A DNA stretch of 64,000 bases from a virus (lineage: Duplodnaviria > Caudoviricetes), in the IMG/VR virus record IMGVR_UViG_3300026522_000022, positions 32,001 through 96,000 of that record. One strand, given 5' to 3'. Shown in pieces: positions 31,728 through 63,211 of this stretch; positions within the stretch are counted from its first letter, which is position 1; every line of letters begins with the position of its first letter. The notes under the pieces are model-generated. The model searched no databases, was not told the DNA's origin, and was given only the letters and a program-made list of their open reading frames with translations. Made by a program: the position numbers and the translations under genes.

Positions 31728-32279
31728 TTAATCTCCCGTACTGCCAAAACCACCCCTACTATTTGTTCCAAGAGAAGAAACAGTGGTAAATTTAATGTTA
31801 GGTTGGCGCTGTTGAATCCTAAATTGACAAAGTCGAGTATGCGCAGGGATAATTACATCCCTTGTAGCATATGCGGGAAAGGCTCAAATATCATCGTCTC
31901 CGCAATAACTATTATCAATAATTCCGATACTATTAGTTTGAAGAACTCCCCATTTCTTAAAAGTAGAACTGCGGGGTGCAATAATAGCTTCAAAACCTTG
32001 CGGTAGCTCCATTGCTACACCTAAAGAAATATATTCACGCTCGCCCGCATATAACTCAACTTCTTCATAAGTATATAAATCAATCCAATCGCCTTGCTCA
32101 ATTTTTTGAAGTTCTGGCATACCGTCTAAATATCTAACTTTAATTTCAAAAGTTGGATTGAAAAGTTCCATTAACTGTTCTTCAGTCATCACTTGCGGCA
32201 TTCCACCGCCAATTGGCACACCCATAGACAAATCTACTGGCGGCGCATTAAAATCATTTGGCATTATTAAAGAACTCAT
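31728..32279 (-). CDS. dut: dUTPase (1 TGA)
   Basis: GDWIDL, IAPRSS, GIIDNSYCG motifs; C-terminal RGGFGSTG is reached only by TGA read-through. Confidence 0.9.
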
Positions 32280-35320: not shown

Positions 35321-37777
35321 TTAAGCATCCTCTTCATATATTTCAAGCATTAAAATATTTTGTAATTCTGGGTTTTCTTCTAATTTTGCAATTAAAATAT
35401 TATATTGTTCTTCTGTTAAAGAATTTATATATTCTTCTTTTTGTTTCCTATCATAATCAATTCAATCTTTTTGCATTTTAACATCGCAATTAGCATAATT
35501 GGGATATAATCTTTGAGAAGTAGACTTTAAAGCCAATCTATAAAGGTCATAGTTCGGATCACCTGGTTCACGATTAACACCTTTCATGCATTGGAAGATA
35601 CCACACATTTATACCGTTGTTTTCACAATACTTTAACGCTTATTTAAAAGCCGGATTAGACTATATCATTACTATTATAATATTTTTATAATAGCACAGG
35701 GCACTTCGAAATTATATTGCTATAATTCTACTCCATATAGGATAGTCGTTTGACCTTATAATATTTCTTTAAAATAATAACCATTAATTGATTGTCCGTC
35801 TTGAACTCTTCTCCATAGAGTTGTAAGACTAATATTATATGCTTTTGCAGCTTTAGTTATAGAAGGAAAATTTTCAATATATTGATTGCTTTTATTATAA
35901 ACAGCAATATCATGTCCTTCTTTATCTCCAATTTTTTTGTTCCTATCATTATAATTATTATTATAAGATACGGTACACCATTCAAGATTTTCAACCCTGT
36001 TATTCGCAGGATTTTCATCTTTGTGATTTATAATTTGATAATTATTTGGATTAGGAATAAATGCTTCTGCTACTAATCTATGAATAAAAACACGTTTTTT
36101 CTTTCCAGCTTCCGATAATACTACTCTTAAATGACCGTCCGCTGTTACTTCTGGTTTTAATATCTTTTCTTTATAATGTCTAATCCCTGTTTTTGTTTTA
36201 ACGTTTCTTTCATTTGCTTTAACGTTTCCTAAATTACTAACAGAATATAAGTTATTATAAATTTTTATCCATTGTTCTTTCAATATGCTTGTCCCTCCTT
36301 TCTTGGAGATTTTTTAAAGAAATATTATCTTGGCACAGGATTGTCATGCTTTAAGAATAATAAAGTTTAGAGTTTCCCTGTTAGCAAAAGTATCTCAATA
36401 GTCATTTCCTACTATATTTTACTTTCACACCCGTCTCTGACGGTTCACCCTGTTTTAATTCCCCAGTGGTTATATTTTAGGGAAAATGCTAGTTTTATGA
36501 AGCTTACCAAGACCTTCAATGCTTACTTCAAGAAGTGCCTTTGTAACTAAACGACCTTCTGGTTCTGTGCAAGTACCATAGTTAATTGAAGTGAACGGTC
36601 AAATCTGTTATCGCAAAGGCTTTTTGTCCTTTGCTTCTTATAGTTTCCTATAAGTTCAGCATATATTTTCACCTTCGCCATTGCGCGTTAAGGGCGGACA
36701 CTCGTGGACGAATTATATTTATTCATCGTCTATGCGTTACGGTTCTTAATAGCCTTTCGCAATCTATTAAGTTACCTCGGGGTTAACATATCTAATGACT
36801 TAGTCCTTCCCCGATTTTGCCCGGATTTTCATAAGTATCTCTACTTAAGCAGCCACTCTTTCTAGCTGATTACCACTACGACTTTGAAGAGTATTTAAGT
36901 TATGATACATGCCTTCAACAGCTTGACGAGTTTCTTTCTCCGTCATATCAACAGCATATTTGTATGCGGCTGGATGCATTTTATATTTTTCATCCATAAC
37001 AGACATGGTATTATTTACATCTGCTTCGAGCCCAGCTTCACAATATTTCATACCATCTAAAAAGTGCTTATAGAAGCTCTTGCGGACGTAAGGAACCATT
37101 GTTCAATCAAGATGTGTAGCTGCAACTCCGCCAAACTGTTGTAGAGACTGAAGCTGAAAAATAACAGCCACAAGCTGCATAGCTGTATTGATACTATTAG
37201 CAGGCCGCACATCTGTTTGTCTAGTATTAAAACCATTAGCAAGCAAATCATCAAATGGGATAGAAAGACAATTGTGTGCGCCAATCGCATATGAGTCCAA
37301 GTCGTGAATGTAAATTTCATTATTTATATGGTTTTCTCTAGACATTTTAGACACAAGATGGTCAAGAGCATATTGCTTCATAACTACATTATTAGCCTCA
37401 CCCCTGCGGCCACCGAAAGAATATTCATCAACATTGGCATTTTGATTTTGGACGTTTGAAGCTAAAAGTTTTTCTTTAATTGCTTCTTCTGTCTTTTTCT
37501 TTCTAGCAAGTTCATGGTCATATCTATATCTAATATAAGCTTTGGCTTCATCAATATAGCCATTGTTAATTAAACAATCTTCAACTATATCTTGAATTTC
37601 TTCAACTGACACATTTTTCTTATGTAATTTTTTAATAGCTGTTTCAATATCATTTAATACTACCGCATCATCAAATTCTTTTCCTAGTTCTGTAAATGCG
37701 CCAGATATAGCAATAGAGATTTTTTCTAGGTTATATTTTACCTTAGTACCATCTCGTTTAACTACTTTTATTCGCAT
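35321..37777 (-). CDS. nrdD: Class III RNR, N-terminal fragment with ATP cone; exons 37777-36864, 36599-36479, 35605-35321 (~439 aa, 2 TGA)
   Basis: MRIKVVKRDG ATP cone, IYIHDLD, HNCL, HLD(W)TMVPY; splices give SGNQL|PFTSINYG and SIFP|CGIFQ; RLYPNYAN. Confidence 0.88.
35606..36478 (-). mobile_element. Group I intron 2 of nrdD (873 nt) carrying an HNH endonuclease
   Basis: P1 TTCCCT/GGGGAA; terminal G; splicing restores IFPCGIFQ. Confidence 0.88.
35756..36283 (-). CDS. Intron-encoded NUMOD4-HNH homing endonuclease with NUMOD1-like C-terminus
   Basis: W..I...YSVSNLGNV, HRLVAEAFIPNP, INHKDENPANNRVENLEWCT. Confidence 0.9.
   Translation of the reverse strand: MKEQWIKIYNNLYSVSNLGNVKANERNVKTKTGIRHYKEKILKPEVTADGHLRVVLSEAGKKKRVFIHRLVAEAFIPNPNNYQIINHKDENPANNRVENLEWCTVSYNNNYNDRNKKIGDKEGHDIAVYNKSNQYIENFPSITKAAKAYNISLTTLWRRVQDGQSINGYYFKEIL
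36600..36863 (-). mobile_element. Group I intron 1 of nrdD (264 nt, no ORF)
   Basis: P1 CAGCT/GGCTG; terminal G; splice CT|A restores GNQLPFTS. Confidence 0.85.
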
Positions 37778-37849: not shown

Positions 37850-38467
37850 TTATACGTTTTTGGCCAAACCTTTATGTATCCCATGAATTTTAATTCAATA
37901 ATATATCATAGATACTATTTTAGATGAATCTTTTTCATTATGAAAAATAAGAAAATCCTTAAAATAATCGTTTAAATATTTTTCCATTTTCTTAAAATCT
38001 TTATGGTCAGCAATAATACGTCTAATAAATTCTTTTTTAAGTTTATTTTCACGTTTTATTGACCTATTTAATCTAGTAAAAACATTTGTATCTATATATA
38101 TAGGAATAATAGTATAAAAACTTTGCAGTTCATTTAATTGTTTTAAACTTTTAGGATTAAAAATTCCAATATTTATCATAGTATCGACTATTTGAAATTT
38201 ATTTGTTCCATAATATCAATTATTAAATTTAGTATATTCTAAATACCGTCCAAATATAATATTATGCCCGAATACTTTATTAGAAACAAAATGATAATCT
38301 ATATCTTGATACTCATCTTTTCTTCGCGGTCTAGTTGTATCGTGTAACAAAAGTTTTGAAGGAATATTATTTTTCTTTAAAAGTTTATGCAATTCTATTG
38401 CTAGAGTATTTTTTCCAGATGCAGATTTTCCTAAAAATGCTATAATTATAGGTTTAATTTTCTTCAT
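37850..38467 (-). CDS. gmk: Guanylate-kinase-like nucleotide kinase (205 aa, 2 TGA)
   Basis: GKSASGKNT P-loop, TTRPRR...DYHFVS, FNN(W)YYGT. Confidence 0.75.
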
Positions 38468-41400
38468 CTTTTTCTCCCCAACGTTTATTAGTAAACTCTA
38501 ATGTACCATCCTCGTTAATCTGAGTAATCTTATAAAGTTGGTGTGAATTTGTCTTTTTATAAGCTTTCGTAAAGAACATATTTCCACGACGAAAACCATT
38601 CACCATTACTTTTGTACCACGAGTAAACCAACCATTTTCCTTTACTTTTTTTGTTCCATCAATCTGAACTTCACTAATCCTTCTATTATACTTTGCATAA
38701 TAATCACGACTAAATTTAACTGTTACAACTCCACTGTTCGGAGTCAAAATACTAATTGATGATTTATTATCATCTTTCGCAATTACAGTCCCAACAATTC
38801 TTAATGTTTTAAAAATTGGAATCCGCACATTGTTTCTCTTAAAGGTATAATCAACAACTGGATCTTCTGGCAAATACTCATATTCATGAATATTATACTT
38901 CTCACAATCAATATTCTTCAAAACATGTGGATGATAATAAAATCCTAAACTATCCATTTCCCAATCAGACAATGTACCTTCCGCATACTTATCCCATACC
39001 TCTTGGAACAAAGTATTATTCAATTTATTAAGAATATCTTCTTGATGCTGCTTAAAATATGTGCGGGCCGCATCCATTCCCTTATCATAAAGTTTCTTCC
39101 AAACTTTCTGACTAATTACCAATTCACCATCAATATTTGGTTCAAGTAAATCTACATCAAAAAATTCTTCATAAAAGTCATAATAATTATCTTTTACAAT
39201 AAAATCATCACCACTTTTACAATTTGCTTTTAGTGCTTTATTAAACACAAACAATCTTTTTTGAAACTCAAGATGTTCTGGAATCAAATTTCTTTCCATT
39301 AATCCATTAAAATTTTGAAGTGTAATTCTCTTTTTTGGTTCGCAAACACTCCAAATATATTCTTTCATAATTTCTTCTCTTTTACCAAATGAATCAAATG
39401 CTCCACTCTTAATCAAAGAAATCATAACAGTTTTATTACACTTAACTTTCTGTTGAAAGTCTGTTAAACTTGCGTATGGTCTATTCGCAATAATTTGCTG
39501 AATAATTTCTCCACCAACGCCATTTAATGCCTTCATGCCGTATAGAATCGTGTCTGTTACAACATCCGGTTCAAACATATAACCAGAACGATTAATATCA
39601 ATCAATGATACATCAATGCCGCGATTAATAATATTACCTACTGCTTTTGCAATCTTACCATAGTTTGTACTTGCTTCTTCCTCCAAACCACTGTCAACTC
39701 GAAGACAAGCTGTATTCCAATAGACAGGATTGAAATAAGTTGCGAGATAAATCGTTTGCAAACCAACAAAACTATATGCTAAACTATGAATTAAACTAAA
39801 ACTATCATTCACCCTCAAGTTTCCAAGAGGAATAGACTATCTCTTACCCGCTTTCGCGGGAACACCCATTTCCAATTACGTATCAATAGTAATTGTACTC
39901 CCAGTCTCACCCAGGATAGTCGTTACAGGTTTCTTAGTGGATATTTTATATTGTTATCTTTATGTGTTTCGCCCTTATTGATACGTCGGACTGTTTCAAT
40001 AGAGCAATTATATTTTTGACTTATTTCTGTTATTGATAAATTGTTTTGTAACAATTCTTCTTTTATGTAGTCTGCTTTATTTTTCTTTCTTATTGGATAA
40101 GTAGGATACAATCCTTTTCTTAATTTTCCACTATTTATTTTTTTAACAGTAGAATATCCAATATTTAATTGTCTTGCTATGTCAGCTAAAGATAAATAAG
40201 ATTCAGTTAATAATTCAATTAATTCGTCATAATCAGAATCTTTTTTATAATACTGAAAAAGAGGATAATCAATATCTTCATCGTGATAATAAATTCCATG
40301 ATTAACAGATGATATAAAACTTGCACTTATATTATATTTATTTTGTAACTCATAATATTCAATACCTTGTTTTATATCTTCTTTTAATTGTTGAATTTGT
40401 TCATTAGATAATTTACCTTCATACTTGCGAGATCCACCCAAGTCCATGTTATATCCTTGTCCAAATCCGCAATATGATTTTTTATTATCAATTCAATATT
40501 GTTCTCGACTATTTATATAATTTTGATCATTACTAGTTCCTTGCTCCAATAAATATATATTAAAATTATTTTCTCCATATTGTCTAATTTTTTTATGAAT
40601 AAGATCATTATAAGAACTAGCATTTTTATTAAAAGCACAAGAACGATGTTCATTAATTCGACGGTTATAATTATTAGTTTGTCCGACATAATTATGACCA
40701 TTAATTTTATTTTCATAACAATATATATAATACATTTCCACCAAGCCTTCCCACGGGATTGCCATCACAAATGGGGTATATTTTATACCCTCATTATATA
40801 TTAGGTTTCCCCGTTAGCCAATTATAAAAATTGACCCCGCCGATAAACGGAAAAGGTGTTTAGGGGCAAGTTTTTTGTTTACCCCATCTGCGGCTTAATT
40901 GCTGTTTCCCAAATATACGCACCAAGATTTTCTGAAGTTGCTCTATCCATTACTCTTTGATGAAGTTCTTCAATACGATTCATTTGTTTCTTTGCACAAA
41001 TTTTTCTCGCATCGTTCGCTTCTTTCAATGTAAACCCGCAAATATCTTTGTCCATCAAAATCATCATCATATCTTCTTGCTGTGCGGGCGTTGCATAAGT
41101 TGACAGATAATACTTTTCCAATACCGCAATATCATGTTGAGTAATATGCCATCTTTTAAGCTCATCATACCAAAGATTCATATTATCCATCATTCGCTTA
41201 TATCGTTCAGTCGGCGTCTCTCCACCTTTTTCTGTTGCCATCAGCCGCATACAACTATTACTGTTTGCCATTTCCTTTGGTGTGCGCGGCTGCAATGTTT
41301 TAACTGTCTGACTTCCAACTTGTGAATCAAACTGGAATAACTTCAAAACATTTCCAGATGCTAATGTATCCCACATTTTATCATCTTGAATCGGCAAAAC

Positions 41401-43351
41401 ATCTGGATGAATGTACTTATTATAAACTTCTCGCAAAGTTAATTCTGGTTCAATTTCTTCATGCTCTTGGAGCATTTGAATACACTGAACAATAACATCC
41501 TGAATTTCTGTTACAAGAAAATCATACTTTACATCACCTACATATTCCGCGTCATGAAGTGAATATTGAGTTACAATTGCTCCACTCGTTGCTTTCATAA
41601 AACATGCTGTCTTATATGGGTCATTATCATAAAAATTAACGCCTGACGCATGAATACCACGATGGTTAATAAGACCCTCAATGTTTTCAATAATATTCAA
41701 AAGTCCTGGATACTTGTTTACTTCATTAATAAAATTCTTTACTGGTTTGCGGCCAGTCTCTTCGTTTCCATATACCAGATCATGAATCGGCCAAACAAAT
41801 CCTCGCTCAGATGGCGCAAGACTTGTCATATACTGCGCAATATCGTTGTCAATTCCATTTGGAAAACTTTCACTACGATAACCACGACATGCTGTTGCAA
41901 TTGCAGAACGAGTTGACTCTGTTCCATATGTACAAACTTGAACACATCCAAGTTGTCCGCGCTCTTCACGAATCTTACTAAAAATCTTTTCTCTCTTGGA
42001 TGGACAAATATCAATATCAATGTCGGGGAGTTCTACACGATCTTTATTCAGAAAACGCCAATATGGAAGTTCATACTTAATCGGGTCAAGCTGTGTAATA
42101 CCGAGAAGATAATGATTTAATCCTGCACAAGCTGAACCACGACCCGCGCCTACTGTGCTGCCGCACTCCCAAAAAAGATTAATATAATGCTGAAGAAAGA
42201 TTGGATAACTAAACATACAAGTTTCCAACTTATCTCCAATTGTTTTTTGAATATCTGCTTCCTCTTCAAGACGCTGAAGATAAACATCATTATATAAACC
42301 AAGTTCTTTAAGTTTATCTACACAATAATTAACCCAATATCTTTCTTGAATTTCGTCACTTTGATAAAGATAATCAAGAGTTTTATATCCAAGAGAAGAT
42401 GAAATCTTAGGATAATTATGAACCTCTACTTGCGGCACCTGCTGTTTGTGTGCCAAATTAAAATTTTCAATCTTATCATAAATCTCTATTGTATTCTTTT
42501 CAAGTTCATAATAATCAAGGCCAGTATCTTTAAGATTTTCAATTACTTCTTCAGTTGATTGAAGATATGCATACTCATAAAATGCATCGACTTCTCGCTC
42601 ACCATTCTTTGAATTAAGATATGCTTTATGAACTTCTCTATCTGCTTTTGAAAGATAATGCGCGTCAGTTGTTACAATAATCTTAACACCAAAATATTGC
42701 GCGAGAGCTTTCATGCGGCTGTTGACAACCATCTGCTCTCTACTTCTTGCTGGCTGAACTTCAAAATAATAATCATCACCGAACACATACTTGCACCACT
42801 CAACAAAGTCAATAATTTGATTATAATACTTTGTTTTACCCTCAATGTTTCCAAGATGTTCAGCCTTGCACATTTCAAGAATACAATAATCAAGTTCTGA
42901 ACCAAGACATGCGGAGGATGCAATTAGATTTCCTCGACCATACTTTCTCACAATACCTTCGAGGTCACTTTTAAGAGTTGGAACCCTCTCCATACCACGG
43001 TCATAATAACTATTCATCCATGCAATAGACGAAAGTTCACGTAACATTTTATGTCCTGTTGCATTCTTTGCAATCAAGATAAAATGATAATATTTTTGCC
43101 CAGTTTCTCTCGTATCAGTAAGATAAATTTCATTACCGAGTGCTACTTTAAAATCAGGATATTCTTTCGCAATTTGATGACGATATTTATCTATAACCAC
43201 ATGACCGCCGAGAGACTCGTGATCCGTAACGGCGATCCCCGTAAGTCCAAGTTCAATTGCTCTATCTATAAGTTTTTCTGGGAAGTTAATTGAGTCAAAG
43301 TAAACGAATATTGCTGTACATTGTATGACTATGCAGCTCCATCCTACCCAA
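38454..43351 (-). CDS. dnaE: DNA polymerase III alpha subunit (~1273 aa); needs a +1 frameshift at 43300-43294 and splicing of intron 40880-39806
   Basis: PHP motifs LHSHTMYS..LL/DS...AVTDHE, GAGRGSA, PDIDID, HASG, KYDFL; splice restores MG|YSFSLIHS; strong AAGGAGG RBS before TTG 43351. Confidence 0.9.
39806..40880 (-). mobile_element. Group I intron in dnaE (1075 nt) with GIY-YIG endonuclease
   Basis: P1 GGGGT/GCCCC; terminal G; T|AT restores Tyr of GYSF. Confidence 0.9.
39923..40735 (-). CDS. Intron-encoded GIY-YIG homing endonuclease (270 aa, 1 TGA)
   Basis: YIYCYENKINGHNYVGQT...RRINEH...EQY(W)I...GYNMDLGG; HTH-like repeats. Confidence 0.85.
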
Positions 43352-43395
43352 TATTCTCCCTCCTTTCAAACTATTCTTTCTCAATTTGTATATTT

Positions 43396-43424
43396 ATTAT
43401 ATCATAAAAAAACAGAGCTGTCAA
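43396..43424 (-). promoter_or_regulatory. Sigma70/SigA-type promoter of dnaE
   Basis: TTGACA-17-TATAAT with TG; the -35 lies inside the inverted repeat agagctgtc-aaac-gacagctct. Confidence 0.8.
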
Positions 43425-43456
43425 ACGACAGCTCTTATTACCTTATAAAAATTAGA

Positions 43457-43702
43457 TTACTTAAAGGCCGCACAAATTTCTTGCAACTGTTTTTGGTTTT
43501 GAATCACTTCATTGATGACTGTATTTGGTACAGTAAACTCTACATATATTTTATGTTTTTCTGTATCTGCGCGAAGATTATCTGGAAAATAAAACATTAC
43601 TTCATTTGACTCTTCATCAACGGGGCCTCGAAGTAAAAATGTAGAAAATTGGTGCGCACGCATAAAATTTAAAAATGGTTGATAAGCATCATCAAGTTCC
43701 AT
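43457..43702 (-). CDS. Hypothetical protein (81 aa)
   Basis: Track ORF with RBS. Confidence 0.6.
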   Translation of the reverse strand: MELDDAYQPFLNFMRAHQFSTFLLRGPVDEESNEVMFYFPDNLRADTEKHKIYVEFTVPNTVINEVIQNQKQLQEICAAFK

Positions 43703-43983: not shown

Positions 43984-44012
43984 ATTATACCATATTATTT
44001 TTTATCTGTCAA
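43984..44012 (-). promoter_or_regulatory. Sigma70/SigA-type promoter
   Basis: TTGACA-17-TATAAT with TG. Confidence 0.75.
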
Positions 44013-44861: not shown

Positions 44862-47709
44862 CTAAAAAACTCATTTAGTATCCAGTTTATAATCTTCTAC
44901 AATAAGTTGAGCGCTAACATTCCCATTCCATTCATTTTTAGCTGCTCGACAAATTGCAGTTAAAATTTTATTTTGACCTATAAAATTTTCATACTCTTCT
45001 TGCGAAGATTTAAATTTCATAATATCAATTCCATTATCAAGATGAATCTTAATCGTTGGGTGCTTATCTGGAGAAAGTAAATGTACTTGATAAGGTTGAA
45101 TAGAAATGTTTTCTATACAAATATAAGGTTCAGAAATTTCTTGTCCCCAATAAGGTTTTGCTTCTGCTATTGAGAGGATATCATCGCTGCTCATGTCATT
45201 CAAAGACCAAATAAAGTCCACCCAATAGATAGGAGAATTAGATACATTTTTATATTGTTCATTTGTACTCTCTATAAAATCTTCTAATTTTGATTCTGGG
45301 ATAGAAATACCGAATGCTGAATCATGACCTTGCGCATATTCTACATCGCCCGTATCTTCACAGAGCTGCCGCATATCTTGAATTTCAGACATATTATAGT
45401 TGCGGGCGCTGCCACGATAAAACACTTCTTTATCATCTTTAGTTTTACTTTTAATTAATACTAAACAAGGACGCTGATATTTTGCTTGAATTTTATTTGC
45501 AACTAGTCCTGCGAGATTTTTTTCTACTTCTCCTGGTTCACACTTAAAAATAAGAATGGCATTGTCAAGAAGATTTTCCTCTAATATCTTGTTTTCAAGA
45601 AGAGCCATTGTCGAATCTTGTAACTTTGTTTGTCTTGCTTTAACATTGGTACAAATCCTTACTGCTTCTTCTACTCTTGGAACCATTTCTCCTTTGTGAC
45701 CACGTTTGCCGCTAGGAATTTCCTCGAAAGCGTACATCTGTAAAAATGATTTAAAAATCATATCTTTTTCTTCTGCGGTTCCTGAACGAACCATAGCATT
45801 AATAAAAGGAGTTACATAAAATGCAATTGACATGTAATTAATGCCACCCATTTTATTAATACTAAACTCATTCTTTTCTGTCATATAATAAAAGAATGGG
45901 TTTTTAATATTTTTTAATCCTAAATTAATAATAGCTCTGGTTTCTAATGAACGATAGTCCATCATATCAGACAACCACAAACTCTATTGTTTCCAATAGT
46001 GCAGACTATATTTTACTCATATGAGTATATCTCTTTCGGTTTTCACGCACTTCGTTTCCTAAAATGCGGCTGCGTATCAATAGCAACCCTACTTCCCAGC
46101 ATTTCAACCTAAGGAATAGTCGTTACAGGCTTCGATTTAAATATTCTTTCAAGTATATCTATAACAAACTTTTCTAATTGTTTCTTTTGAAACTTCTTGA
46201 TAATCTTTAGCAATTTGTTTTCATTGCTCTCCATCATCAAATCTTTTTCTAATAGCTAAAACTTTTTCTTTTGTAAGTTTTGCTTTATTATTTCTTTCTC
46301 CAGAATTAGCGATTGAAGAATATTCTTGACGAGTTTTAGCTCCTTTAGGAATTATAAATTCTTGACCGATTTCTTTATAGCCATTTCCTAATCAAACATT
46401 TTCAAATGTATTAAAAGATATATTGTTATAATCTTTATATACATCTACTTTTCTTTCTCCAAAAAATCTACGTTTTCTAATATCTAAAACTTGTTCATTG
46501 GTAAAAACTGCTTGATTAAAATCAGAACCACTTAAAGTTGAATTATCTCCGCCAGGAGTTAAATTATATCCTTTTTCTTTATCATTAGAATGATAAAAAG
46601 CAATTCAATATTTTTCTCGTTCTCCCATCTGCATTCTATTTTCAGAATTGCAGAAATCAAGAATTTCTATTTCTTCAATTTTTCCATATTTATTAATAGC
46701 TAAATCACAAGGAGTTTTATTTGTTGATGGATTATTATGTTCTCACATTCTTCTTCTAATATCATTACTCATTCCTATATATATTTTATTATTAGGGAAA
46801 GTAATTTTGTAAATGCCAGACATATTATCCATTAAATCTTTTACTTGAATTTTCATAATACCTCCCTTCCGCAGGAGATATTTAAATCGATTCCCACGGG
46901 ATTGCCATGTATAATAGAGGTTTATCCATCATGTCTTCATGTCTCTATTATATTTAGGTTTCCCCGTTAGCAAATTATTGAGTTTTACCCAAAAATTTAC
47001 CCCGCTGATAAACGGAAAAGATATATTAGCACGTTTATAAGTTCATGCCTAAAGCAGCTAAATCTAATAAATCAACAGAATGACATTTAACTTCAAAATA
47101 ATTGCCACCATTGGAAAAATAAGAGTCCATTGCACGACACATATGCCATGTTACGCCAGCACCACTTAAATTTTTATTAGGATAATCACAAATTTGATTA
47201 TTAATTATAATGGCATTTTTATTCCATACATCTGAATGGTGATGATCCATACAAATTACATCTATACCATTATCTAAAAGAGCTTGCATTTCATCTACAT
47301 CATTAGTTCCTGCATCTGGTATAACAACTAATTTTGTCCAATTATCATTTAAAATATCTTCATAACAATCAGCTAATCCGTGTTGTTTACCTGTATGTAA
47401 TATATAATCTATATGCGTAGCCGCATATTCTGGTCATTGAGCGTATAGGTAATTAATAAATATCGCGGCAGAAGTAAAACCATCTGCATCACTATCTACA
47501 ACAACAGTAATATTATCTTCATCGTGATATGCTTGAATTATTCTTTGAATAAGTCTATTAACCATTTCTTGACCAAATAGACTTTCATCATAAATTTGTT
47601 TTCCATCTGCGTTTAACCAAGTATCTAATTCATCGAATTTTAATCCACGATTAATTAATACCTGGGTTAATGCTGAATATTTTGGTTCATTAAATATTTT
47701 GTAAATCAC
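44862..47709 (-). CDS. recJ: RecJ-like DHH ssDNA exonuclease (~592 aa); exons 47709-47045 and 45975-44862; 2 TGA
   Basis: DSDADGFTS, PDAG, DHH, LSGAGV; splice gives AALGM|LSDMMD; GSAR and GHDSAFG. Confidence 0.88.
45976..47044 (-). mobile_element. Group I intron in recJ (1069 nt) with GIY-YIG endonuclease
   Basis: P1 GGCAT/GTGCT; terminal G; core shared with the dnaE and gyrB introns. Confidence 0.85.
46137..46856 (-). CDS. Intron-encoded GIY-YIG homing endonuclease (239 aa, about 5 TGA; absent from track)
   Basis: SGIYKITFPNNKIYIGMSNDIRRRM(W)EH...EKY(W)I...GYNLTPGG; GGAGG RBS. Confidence 0.85.
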
Positions 47710-59508: not shown

Positions 59509-62427
59509 AAATTTCCGCCCTTTCGCTGTTATCTCTAATGTAAATCTTGCGCTTTTCTGCATCTTTGCCCATCAATTGTTCAAAGAGCATATCAGCTTTG
59601 CCAAAATCTTCAATCGTAATTTGTTTAATAATTCTGGTTTCAGGATTTACTAGCGCCTCTTCGATTTCGTCAGAAGACATTTCTCCTACGTATGATTCCT
59701 TTATTTCTAAAGGTACTGACTATTTCTTCTATCGTATGATAGCTCACCGTTTCCACCTATGTACCAATAATAGGTGTACTCCCCAACAACGGGGATAGTC
59801 GATACAGGTTTTATTCTACGACGATATGTTTTCAATTATATCCATTCCAGATATTTTTAAAAGAACCTTTTGTAATACCCGTATATTTATAATCTTCATA
59901 TACATCTTTTTGTTTTTCGCCATTCTTTTTTCTTAAACGAATGGCTAATACATCTTCTTCAGTAAGTTTTGAACGACCGTTTTGTGAACCTTTTTGTCCA
60001 GTGTTATGTTTATGAAATTCTATATTTTCTGGAGTGTAAACATCCATCATAACACCTTTTCAAGTTTCTCCTTTTCAAATTTTAGAAAAACCTGAATGAC
60101 CAATTTTATCTTTATAAAGTTGCTCAACTTCTTTACAACGTTCTTTATTTTTATATCGTGTTCTTATATCTATAACATCTTGTTCAGTCATTTTATGCCG
60201 TGGATGATTTTCTCCATTGTTTCCCTCTCCGCCGCATCTAATATTATAACCATTATCATGAACTAAAGAATGATAATAATTAATTCAATATTGTTCTTTT
60301 TTATCTAAGTCATTCAAAGAACATTCTTCAATCACAGAAAATATAAAATTTTCTATTCCGTATTTCTTAAATGCTTTGTACAGAGGAGAATCGGCGTGTC
60401 GTTCTTGCTCATATGGAGATTTATGTTGCGTCCATCTTCTTTCAATAAAATTAGATTGACCAATATAAATTTTACCATTTATTTTATTTTCTATTTTATA
60501 AATACCAATCATATTATCTCCTTTCAATAATGATTAGAGATAATATCGTAGTAGAATAACTTCCCACGAGATTATCTTCTACTATATATAATTTTTAACA
60601 TTTCACGGTTATCCTGAAATACCCAAAATTATTTTATAGCGGTCAGACTCCCTCGTTAGCCGCAAATGCGACCCCGCTGGTAAACGGAAAAATGAGTAAG
60701 GGCCAGACTATCTCTTACCCTTTTAAACGACTAACTTGATATTTGCTAATATCATTCTCTTGCTTAAATTCGGCAAGAGCATCGTCATCTTTAATATAGA
60801 TAATCTCTTTATTATTTTTCAATCTGAAAAGTGGTGGAACGCCCGCATATACAAAACCATCTTGAATCAGTTCTGGGGCAAAATTCCATATAAACGTATA
60901 AAAAAGATTTTTAATATGAGCTCCGTCTACGTCAGCATCGCTCATAATAATAATTTTTCCATAACGCACATCAGCCTTATTGTAGACAAGACGCTTGCCA
61001 TCTGCACTAACTTTCAGTCCAAAAGCATTAATCATATCTACAATCTCTGCATTTTTCATAATCTTATCCAGAGTTGCCTTTTGAGTGTTAAGAATCTTAC
61101 CACGAACAGGAAGAACCGCTTGATATTCGTTATTACGAACTTGCTTTAGATTACCACCTGCAGAATCGCCCTCTGTGATATAAATCTCACATTTACTTCT
61201 GTCCTGACTATAACAATCAGCAAGTTTAGAAGGAAGATTTAAAGACTTCTTCTTTGGCTCAGTCTTTACTTTTGCCTTAACAGCAGCCCTTGCTTTCTTC
61301 GCAGCTTCTGCCGCACGTCTAGCTAGAAGAGCTTTCTCAATAATATTTCTTCCATCTGTTGGATTGTTGTCTAGCCAAACTTCAAGTTGTTGTCCAAGAG
61401 TAGAAGAAATAAATGAAGTATCAATCTTAGTTACGGTTGTTTTAACCTGGGCATTATAACCAACATTTTCAGCAGTGATATTGCAGACAAGAATCAAACC
61501 TTCTTGTAGAGAACTACCATCAAGATTCTTTTCTTTTTCTGTAAGAATACCCTGCTCTTTAGCCCACTTATTCATAATACGGGTGATGGTAGATTTAATA
61601 CTTGTGATGTGCGGACCTTGCGTAGTATTGCCGCAATTAACATAAGTAATAATATTGCTGCTGTTCCGAGAAGTGTAAGTTAAAGCCAAATCAAGTTTTT
61701 GTTTTTTCTCTTTCTCTTGGATAATAAGTGGTGTATTAATAATTTCAATATCAGTTCCAATATTCTTTTTTAGAAAATCGGAAATACCATTTTCATGTCG
61801 AATTTGTTCATTGTTAAATACAATTGTCAAATTAGGACAAAGGCATGTAATATCATCACAAAATTCTTTAAGCTTTTTAATATTAACATGCGGGTCATCA
61901 AAGAATTCTGCACTTGGCTTAAAGGTTACTGTTGTACCTGACCAGTTAAAACCGTCTCCAACTTCGCGCTTATCAAACACACCTTCTTTAAACCAAATAT
62001 GCTCATACTCACCAGTCTCTTTGTGAGAAATAACTTCCAACCAATTAGAAAGAAAGTTGGTAAGTTTGCTACCTTGGCCGTGTAGCCCCAACGCGCTACC
62101 TTCATACACTCCATCTGAAGAGAATTTACCAGATGTATTCATAACATCAAACGAAGCTTGGAGGATAGTTTCATTATCTTCACGAAGAACATTGATAGGA
62201 AATCCTTGTCCTTCATCTTCAATTTGAACAACACCATTATCAGCAATATTAATAATAATTTTATTTCCGTGTCCAATATTGTGCTCGTCAATAGCATTAG
62301 CTAGAATTTCTAGTGCCAACTGAGTAGGGTCTTGAGTATCTCCAATATACATACCAGGGCGTAAGCGAACATGCTCTCTAGGGGCCAAAGACTCAATACT
62401 ATCATCAGTATATAAAGTTTTATCCAT
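59501..62427 (-). CDS. gyrB: Type IIA topoisomerase (gyrase-like) subunit B; exons 62427-60717 and 59688-59501 (~632 aa)
   Basis: VRLRPGMYIG, EGDSAGG, PVRGKILN, DADVDG; splice restores RLKG|LGEM. Confidence 0.9.
59689..60716 (-). mobile_element. Group I intron in gyrB (1028 nt) with GIY-YIG endonuclease
   Basis: P1 GGGT/GCCC; terminal G; T|TA restores Leu of KGLGEM. Confidence 0.9.
59811..60512 (-). CDS. Intron-encoded GIY-YIG homing endonuclease (233 aa, 4 TGA)
   Basis: MIGIYKIENKINGKIYIGQS...RRWTQH...EQY(W)I...GYN; repeated KLTEEDV..IR modules. Confidence 0.88.
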
Positions 62428-63211
62428 CAAAGACCCCTTTCTTTTTTAAATAGTTAAAATTAATTAAAGCTAAGTCAGTATAAGGAATTCTTATTAAATT
62501 AATATTATTATCAACGCAATATTGATTTTTTATTTTATCTCTATATTGTACCGCTTTCAAAAAATCCTCCGTATAATATCCTCCGTTTGATTTAAAATGT
62601 TGTATACCATCATATTCTATACAACAATTATATTTAGGCAAATAAAAATCAAATCTTAATATACCAGACGTTTTTTTATTTTTACATCTTCCGTTATCTG
62701 TTCATTCTTCAATAAAATCTATATTATTCTGCTGTAAAATATTTCGTAATAATAATTGTCCTTTAGATTTTTCTGAACATTTTGGACAACAAATTCTTTT
62801 TCTGGTGCCATCTCCATATTTATCTCTATTTCATTCTCCAATTTGTAAATTAAATATATTCCCACAATCGCATCTAATTTGTCAGAGATTACCTCCATTA
62901 GAGCGACTTTCTATTTTTTTAACAGCAGTTAAAGAACCTTTTCGTTCGCCTGTTATATCTAAAGCATTTGCTTTATTTTTTGCAATAACTTTTTCTTTTT
63001 GCAAACATCCGCAACTTTTAGTGTTACCTGTTTTTAATTTGTGCATAGAAGTATAAATAATAGTATGATTATTACAAGAACATTGACATTTTCATAATCA
63101 CCGATTATCGCTATCCTTTTTACCAGTAAATTCAAGAACTGTTAATCTATTAAAAACTTGTCCTGTAATATCTTCTATATTTCTTCCTGATGGGGCTTTA
63201 ATATATTTCAT
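62420..63211 (-). CDS. Free-standing Vsr/DUF559-like (PD-(D/E)XK) homing-type endonuclease (263 aa); TGA=Trp
   Basis: Two DITG..F/K..LT....(W)..CxC modules, SKG, LRFDFYLP...IEYDGIQH...D..K..YC...I.LIRIPY. Confidence 0.75.

Follow-up and report, generated by a model that had tools for sequence, protein, structure and literature searches.

The window analyzed here is a stretch of 64,000 nucleotides (nt) that spans positions 32,001–96,000 of the 130.6-kb IMG/VR record IMGVR_UViG_3300026522_000022, a virus of the Caudoviricetes whose record is estimated to be 90% complete. On the minus strand of the window lies a dnaE gene whose reading frame is broken near its 5' end at CTT TGA C, a heptamer known from bacterial prfB. 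According to its domains (PHP, Pol III alpha NTPase, finger and HhH), the encoded protein is a DnaE/Pol III alpha, and its nearest cultured relatives belong to the Enterococcus phages H1/EF1 (42%) and to SPbeta (yorL, 40%). A nucleotide search of the dnaE 5' region against cultured phages returned weak internal matches only.

A sigma-70-type promoter is located directly upstream of dnaE (43396..43424, minus strand), in which TTGACA and TG-TATAAT, separated by 17 nt, give 12 out of 12 consensus matches. Its -35 hexamer is overlapped by a terminator-like hairpin followed by a T-run (43414..43435, minus strand), which ends the upstream unit. A second perfect 12/12 sigma-70 promoter with the extended TG is present less than 600 nt away (43984–44012, minus strand), where it precedes two small open reading frames (ORFs) of 59 and 81 amino acids (aa) of no recognized family. 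The dnaE gene itself is preceded by the Shine-Dalgarno sequence AGGAGGG (43358..43364, minus strand), which is separated by a spacer of 7 nt from a TTG start codon (43351–43349). Together with 17 further codons, this start forms a frame-0 leader (43298..43351, minus strand), (M)GRMELHSHTMYSNIRLL, which has the His-x-His of the PHP domain. Thus, the strong ribosome-binding site, TTG start and 18-codon leader proposed in the original prediction, made from the letters of the window, were all recovered when the minus strand was read from 43351 onward.

The heptamer CTT TGA C was located exactly where it had been placed in that prediction (43294..43300, minus strand), with CUU in the P-site and UGA in the A-site, followed by C. 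Past the leader, frame 0 continues with TGA (43297–43295), CTC, AAT and TAA (43288–43286), and the outcome of this continuation (43286..43297, minus strand) is either termination at UGA or, if UGA is read as Trp, W-L-N-stop. The +1 frame opens at GAC 43296 and closes at TAA 40879 (40879..43296, minus strand; protein P0001). Its 805 codons contain no internal TGA and encode dnaE part 1, comprising the PHP, Pol III alpha NTPase and finger regions (profile matches to PHP, DNA_pol3_alpha and DNA_pol3_finger). When leader and +1 frame are joined, the resulting ...SNIRLL-DSIN... corresponds column for column to the in-frame homologues, which read ...YSNIRLLD(S/C)IN..., with no residue gained or lost. 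Both the 805-codon frame and this alignment are in line with the earlier claim that the PHP motif goes on only in the +1 frame.

The recurrence of the break was analyzed in two sets of sequences: 25 IMG/VR relatives found with a dnaE protein query, and a census obtained by DNA-pattern scans of IMG/VR for dnaE with the motif N-I-R-L-L-D-(S/C)-I-N, in which any Leu codon + T + GAY was permitted. Three of the 25 relatives (L005, L016 and L025; 58–65% identity) had CTT TGA C at the codon where the window has it, and their leaders showed differences at synonymous positions. The census comprised 80 distinct dnaE 5' ends, 58 of them in frame and 22, the window counted, frameshifted with CTT-T-GA(C/T). 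While the slip codon was CTT in all 22 frameshifted genes, CTT was used by only 17 of the 58 in-frame genes. Likewise, TGA-C was found in 20 of the 22, whereas the in-frame genes preferred GAT over GAC (42 vs. 15). In-frame CTT GAC was restricted to four genes, the frameshifted form being approximately five-fold more common. The idea that these four represent recent revertants was discarded, as no common patch signature was seen. Further, the same 5' ends were found in contigs of separate metagenomes, e.g., L070/L093/L112 and L077/L079/L125, and two GTDB bins, labelled Erysipelotrichaceae (RUG13689) and Clostridium (Clostridium sp. SUG910), have the site on 163-kb and 175-kb contigs. These bins point to Bacillota of the rumen as hosts. 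In DnaE trees (a careful tree with n = 26 and a FastTree with n = 69), the frameshifted genes occupied approximately 10 separate positions, intermixed with in-frame genes. The nearest relatives of the window DnaE, L198 (79% identity) and L001 (76%), are both in frame.

A one-base assembly or sequencing error in this record, with TT read as TTT, had been raised as a caveat to the original prediction, and one base too many in a short run of T would indeed look no different. However, 21 further distinct sequences from many different metagenomes, as well as two GTDB bins, show exactly this break, always as CTT-T-GA and never with another Leu codon. The exclusive use of CTT, the preference for TGA-C and the excess over in-frame CTT GAC (around 5:1) argue against random insertion or sequencing error. 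With 22 distinct 5' ends from about 10 lineages, the caveat was not borne out, and an error is almost certainly the wrong explanation.

The leader also carries the marks of a translated sequence. Its His-x-His is kept in 22 of 22 frameshifted sequences, with variation at the third bases of the His codons, and in eight carrier pairs the codon differences in the leader amounted to 44 synonymous vs. 26 non-synonymous. Judged from these codon comparisons, the leader is translated in frame 0, and purifying selection acts on it. No ATG, GTG or TTG occurs in the +1 frame of the window from its opening stop, 23 codons before the site, to GTG 43200, 32 codons after it, and therefore a fused product is required. 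We also considered that the gene might be decaying or read otherwise, the leader being a separate small ORF with the polymerase starting downstream, or dnaE being a pseudogene, a view to which the GIY-YIG endonuclease gene that also splits dnaE (see below) would lend some weight. Nevertheless, a start at GTG 43200, the first one available in the +1 frame, would drop both the His-x-His and the T-D-H-E motif, the leader is selected in frame 0, and the 805-codon frame is intact, stop-free and 76% identical to an unsplit homologue, which makes decay highly improbable.

The ORF directly upstream of dnaE was then compared by clustering in all 80 loci, and one family was found to be confined to frameshifted loci. 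In its members, a helix-turn-helix-like part at the N-terminus is followed by a Cys-rich ribbon and, at the C-terminus, by an HNH motif in which DH...N...N is invariant, and PF01844 was above the cut-off in three copies. Full-length copies, for which stops were read through, were situated 1–27 nt upstream of the dnaE start or overlapping it in 10 of the 22 frameshifted loci, belonging to at least seven DnaE clades, compared to none of the 58 in-frame loci. An eleventh frameshifted locus, L053, had an HNH remnant. Counting all tblastn matches from 3 kb before to 1.5 kb after the start of dnaE, 11/22 frameshifted vs. 3/58 in-frame loci were positive (Fisher p = 1.5e-5). An intact HNH gene accompanied the frameshift site in the TGA-recoded relative G006/L045. 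In cultured phages, only C-terminal homologues of the family were found; these interrupt methylase genes (Vibrio phage VnaP and Pseudoalteromonas phage H101), and none was beside dnaE, so that the search yielded no cultured model system.

A closely related pair was compared at the site. The frameshifted L077 and the in-frame L137 share 93% protein identity, but five changes set them apart within a stretch of 20 nt there. Since these changes are clustered between near-identical flanks, the difference looks like an imported patch and not like a lone T insertion. Local synonymous preferences were also common to the frameshifted genes, with TTA or TTG before CTT in 22 of 22, and with ATC and CGC enriched.

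In our view, the break is best explained, and probably so on this comparative evidence, as a bare prfB-type +1 frameshift that tolerates an insertion conferring immunity to a homing endonuclease, and that has been orphaned in the window. One T would have been inserted after codon 18 of dnaE, with full-length polymerase obtained only via a +1 shift at CUU UGA C. By analogy with prfB, the UGA in the A-site, set in a weak UGA-C context, would be waiting for RF2 when the peptidyl-tRNA-Leu slips from CUU to UUU, after which decoding would resume at GAC (Asp). Accordingly worded claims in the original prediction, of a prfB-like slip whose Leu-Asp product restores the PHP motif, remain the best reading by comparison. 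As to its origin, the insertion was most likely the part of a mobile cassette that conferred self-immunity; the cassette would have consisted of the HNH gene directly upstream of dnaE and a short patch with the extra T in the PHP-motif sequence, this conserved coding sequence being the presumed recognition target of the HNH protein. In the window, where the HNH gene is absent, the site would be an orphan scar that is still decoded by frameshifting, and the perfect host-type promoter together with the strong ribosome-binding site could offset a low shift efficiency.

Several observations weigh against this explanation. Firstly, neither an HNH gene nor a remnant was detected upstream of dnaE in the window, either by tblastn (E ≤ 10) or by Pfam and PHROGs searches of the upstream ORFs; the position of the HNH gene of relatives is occupied by an 81-aa ORF (43457..43702, minus strand) whose family was not recognized and which is without HNH homology. 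Because the HNH gene is absent there, the window site is an orphan, at most a remnant of the cassette. Secondly, 11–12 of the 22 frameshifted loci are without an HNH gene, and a site that persists without its nuclease requires continued selection or slow reversion. Such selection could consist of immunity against the nucleases of co-infecting relatives or of a regulatory benefit. Thirdly, the HNH proteins are approximately as diverged as DnaE (39–61% identity), which fits ancient vertical co-inheritance with many losses as well as repeated homing. Finally, no Shine-Dalgarno-like word was found within 24 nt upstream of the site in any of the 22 loci, in agreement with the caveat of the original prediction that the internal Shine-Dalgarno of prfB is missing, and no consensus RNA structure around the site was obtained with RNAalifold and single-sequence folds (z-scores from about 0 to +1.5). 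Without the stimulatory Shine-Dalgarno, we infer that the shift efficiency is probably low.

The persistence of the site in about half of the loci without an HNH gene would be accounted for by an attenuator that senses RF2, has a regulatory role only and bears no relation to homing endonucleases. It would keep the polymerase at a low level dependent on the state of the host, and the HNH neighbour would be coincidental. Such a function would also be in line with the strictness of CTT TGA C, with the conserved E-site codon (UUA/UUG), and with the position of the site at codon 18–30, where, as in prfB, abortive products are tiny. However, the presence of full-length HNH genes in 10 frameshifted loci from at least seven clades and in no in-frame locus is hard to call coincidence, and it is a clustered multi-base patch that separates the 93%-identical frameshifted and in-frame genes. 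Moreover, the stimulators of prfB are absent, and a weak ribosome-binding site would attenuate equally, yet the one found here is strong. We therefore regard an attenuator of this kind as unlikely and retain the immunity insertion decoded by frameshifting as the preferred explanation.

In bacteria, the +1 frameshift of prfB takes place at CUU UGA C by slippage of a tRNA-Leu in competition with RF2 (Craigen and Caskey 1986; PMC12421855, PMC3711429). The dnaE site has the identical heptamer, with CUU in the P-site and UGA-C in the A-site, the same Leu-Asp product and a similarly early location (codon 18–19 vs. 25–26 in E. coli prfB), and by analogy competition with RF2 would be expected here as well. 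It differs in that its product is a phage DNA polymerase and not RF2, hence there is no autoregulatory loop; in that the hyper-conserved internal Shine-Dalgarno of prfB, AGGGGG, 3 nt upstream, is absent in all 22 dnaE sites; and in its link to a homing endonuclease gene.

For this link, phage T4 provides a precedent, as the homing endonuclease gene mobA and the translationally bypassed insert of gene 60 move together and the insert blocks self-cleavage (Bonocora 2011, PNAS 108:16351, cited in PMC5009743; bioRxiv 10.1101/2022.08.31.505936). In both cases, the interruption affects a gene of a large phage that is essential for DNA metabolism and falls close to the 5' end, within a coding stretch of high conservation, the insert begins with or creates a stop codon that the ribosome must overcome, and a homing endonuclease gene is located immediately upstream (for dnaE, in the related loci, being absent in the window). 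In contrast to the 50-nt gap of gene 60, with its matched take-off and landing codons, nascent-peptide signal and hairpin, the dnaE insertion comprises 1 nt and would be overcome by a +1 slip. The dnaE-linked nuclease is an HNH protein and not MobA, its target is dnaE and not a topoisomerase gene, and its gene lies upstream of the whole of dnaE without splitting it. While the T4 insert blocks cleavage, a protective effect of the dnaE insertion is putative. By analogy, the dnaE insertion is most likely a one-base counterpart of the mobA/gene 60 cassette. A further likeness exists with the 'savior' or compensated indels that ribosomes decode through frameshifting at a low level (Atkins et al. 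2016, PMC5009743), in that a DNA indel of benefit to an element is tolerated since some ribosomes shift frame. The dnaE indel, however, is placed in an efficient, defined shift heptamer and is conserved across many lineages, unlike a sporadic mutant. Our literature searches for a dnaE frameshift found no description of one.

A different break was observed in a sister clade (L002, L003, L004 and L023 of IMG/VR), in which dnaE reads CAC TAT TCT TAGG TCT AAT six codons upstream of the position of the window's site. Here, the frame is broken by a 7-nt insertion, with TCT on both sides of TAGG. This arrangement fits, as far as the sequence goes, a short hop between matched Ser codons, which would give ...HYS-NLRLLD. 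Bypassing between matched codons, as in T4 gene 60, the subject of a study reportedly by Huang in 1988, does not apply to the one-base shift of the window and is matched in form by TCT-TAGG-TCT of the sister clade. The 44-kb contig of L023 looks TAG-recoded, and the ORF upstream of dnaE there encodes a DNA methylase and not an endonuclease.

To assign the genetic code of the carriers, whole-contig ORF coverage was compared under codes 11, 4 and 15 and combined with a suppressor-tRNA scan; the assignments do not include the short contigs G003–G005. In the record of the window (G000), coverage by ORFs of at least 200 aa was 0.33 when code 11 was applied and rose to 0.68 with code 4, the longest ORFs reaching 2938 aa. 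TGA positions of this genome align mainly with Trp in relatives, and its genes end in TAA or TAG. By these measures, the genome clearly reads TGA as a sense codon (code 4). Internal TGA is absent, with TGG being used, from dnaE parts 1 and 2, dnaB, the ligase gene and gyrB, and also from orf357 and the AAA_24 gene. In neighbouring genes (a methylase gene, two GIY-YIG endonuclease genes, gmk and nrdD), one to six TGA codons each were counted. Hence, the earlier statement that the dnaE UGA is the only in-frame TGA in the core replisome genes was nearly right, as it holds for dnaE, dnaB, ligase and gyrB, but not for recJ_N, which has one. A suppressor tRNA(UCA) was not present among the ten tRNA genes of the 130.6-kb, 90%-complete record, and no release-factor gene (PF00472) was found in this genome or in four relatives. 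The ten tRNA genes form a cluster at 106–116 kb, outside the window.

Code 4 was also assigned to G006, the contig of L045, which encodes a tRNA(UCA). However, the same site occurs under other codes. G007, G008 and G009 use code 15 (TAG sense) and encode a tRNA(CUA), TGA being an ordinary stop in these carriers, and G014 and G015 probably use code 15 too. The standard code 11 was assigned to G001, the contig of L016, and to G013, and probably applies to G010; a suppressor tRNA was not found in G014, G015, G001, G013 or G010. On the other hand, TGA is a sense codon in the neighbouring genes of L001, yet its dnaE is in frame and unsplit (1284 aa), encoding a DnaE that is 76% identical. On these assignments, the frameshift site is neither specific to UGA-recoders nor universal among them. 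Two tRNAs from the carriers may be noted. The tRNA(UCA) of G006 (76722–76818, 97 nt) has a long variable arm, a type II, Ser/Leu-like shape, though TGA in the window's genome aligns mostly with Trp. In the standard-code carrier G001, ARAGORN reported a tRNA with a four-base anticodon (atag; 41745–41833), which would not read CUUU.

These data bear directly on the main proposal of the original prediction, namely that selection has made the site a three-way sensor of how UGA is decoded, which couples replication to a switch of genetic code. In that model, active RF2 leads to termination, abundant tRNA(UCA) leads to W-L-N-stop, and only slow decoding of UGA yields polymerase. In its favour, many genes of the window's genome have TGA read as Trp, dnaE is one of the TGA-free genes and is preceded by a host-type promoter, and in frame 0 two codons separate the TGA from the closing TAA. 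Against this, the identical site is found in the standard-code carriers G001 and G013 (probably also G010) and in the TAG-recoded G007–G009 (probably also G014 and G015), the TGA-recoded relative L001 is in frame, the site follows the HNH gene and not the code, and neither a UCA tRNA nor a release-factor gene was found in the 90%-complete record. The distribution proposed as a check, with the site conserved in code-4 relatives and absent from code-11 relatives, thus failed in both directions, and selection for such a sensor is very unlikely.

Nonetheless, some consequences follow from the position of the site. Because read-through aborts at TAA, polymerase synthesis would be lost once UGA is suppressed. 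In this phage, W-L-N-stop read-through after a code switch is plausibly a side effect, and nothing indicates selection for it. Given its host-type promoter and a coding sequence free of TGA, dnaE seems to be translated at a stage when UGA still acts as a stop. It is conceivable, though rather improbable, that the orphan CUU UGA C now serves, by exaptation, to report on the state of decoding, with a polymerase output proportional to the time during which UGA stays unread. If so, output would track host RF2 activity in all carriers, and in this phage the polymerase would be turned off once UGA is read as Trp, ending translation of replication genes at the early-to-late transition. A code-switching model for stop-codon-recoded gut phages was reportedly put forward by Borges et al. 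in 2022. The window's genome resembles those phages in its TGA-free replication genes and TGA-rich late genes, but the UGA of dnaE does not act as a recoded sense codon, and the same site is present under other codes.

Beyond the dnaE start, the window is rich in homing endonuclease genes. The GIY-YIG gene that splits dnaE (39923..40768, minus strand) has one in-frame TGA and is followed by dnaE part 2 (38454..39818, minus strand), with HHH_6 and the C-terminal region. Part 1 aligns to residues 29–833 of the unsplit L001 DnaE and part 2 from residue 835 onward, so that the split falls between residues 833 and 835 with nothing lost; part 1 ends in ...KPQMG and part 2 begins five residues before SFSLIH.... 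Rfam searches of 37.5–44.5 kb found no family, including no group I intron around the GIY-YIG gene. Similarly, recJ (44862–47709, minus strand) is divided into a DHH part (47035–47709) and a DHHA1 + OB part (44862–45980) by a second GIY-YIG endonuclease gene (46137–46973, minus strand), in which six in-frame TGA codons are present. An nrdD-like ORF (36845–37777, minus strand) contains the ATP-cone and only the first ~156 of 562 NRDD profile positions, and this gene may also be interrupted. Directly upstream of gyrB, a 263-aa ORF with five in-frame TGA codons (62420–63211, minus strand) weakly resembles the N-terminal, Cys-rich region of the HNH family associated with dnaE (E ~0.002). It may represent a further DNA-binding gene of endonuclease-like type that adjoins a conserved gene of replication.

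Taken together, the break in dnaE was confirmed, the comparative evidence supports its reading as a probable prfB-type frameshift, and the role of a code-switch sensor was unsupported. In practical terms, gene callers split or shorten these polymerase genes and, under code 4, would mistranslate the dnaE UGA as Trp, and the annotation of recoded phages should mark it as a site of shifting. Should ribosomes indeed change frame at this point, dnaE would constitute a second natural gene family with the prfB heptamer, and one without the Shine-Dalgarno stimulator of prfB, encoding a replicase that is essential to many uncultured phages of gut and rumen. The +1 slip and the sister-clade gap together suggest a pattern in which homing endonucleases may seed minimal recoding signals as self-immunity in conserved genes, which would widen the isolated case of T4 gene 60 to a spectrum ranging from +1 slips to short hops.

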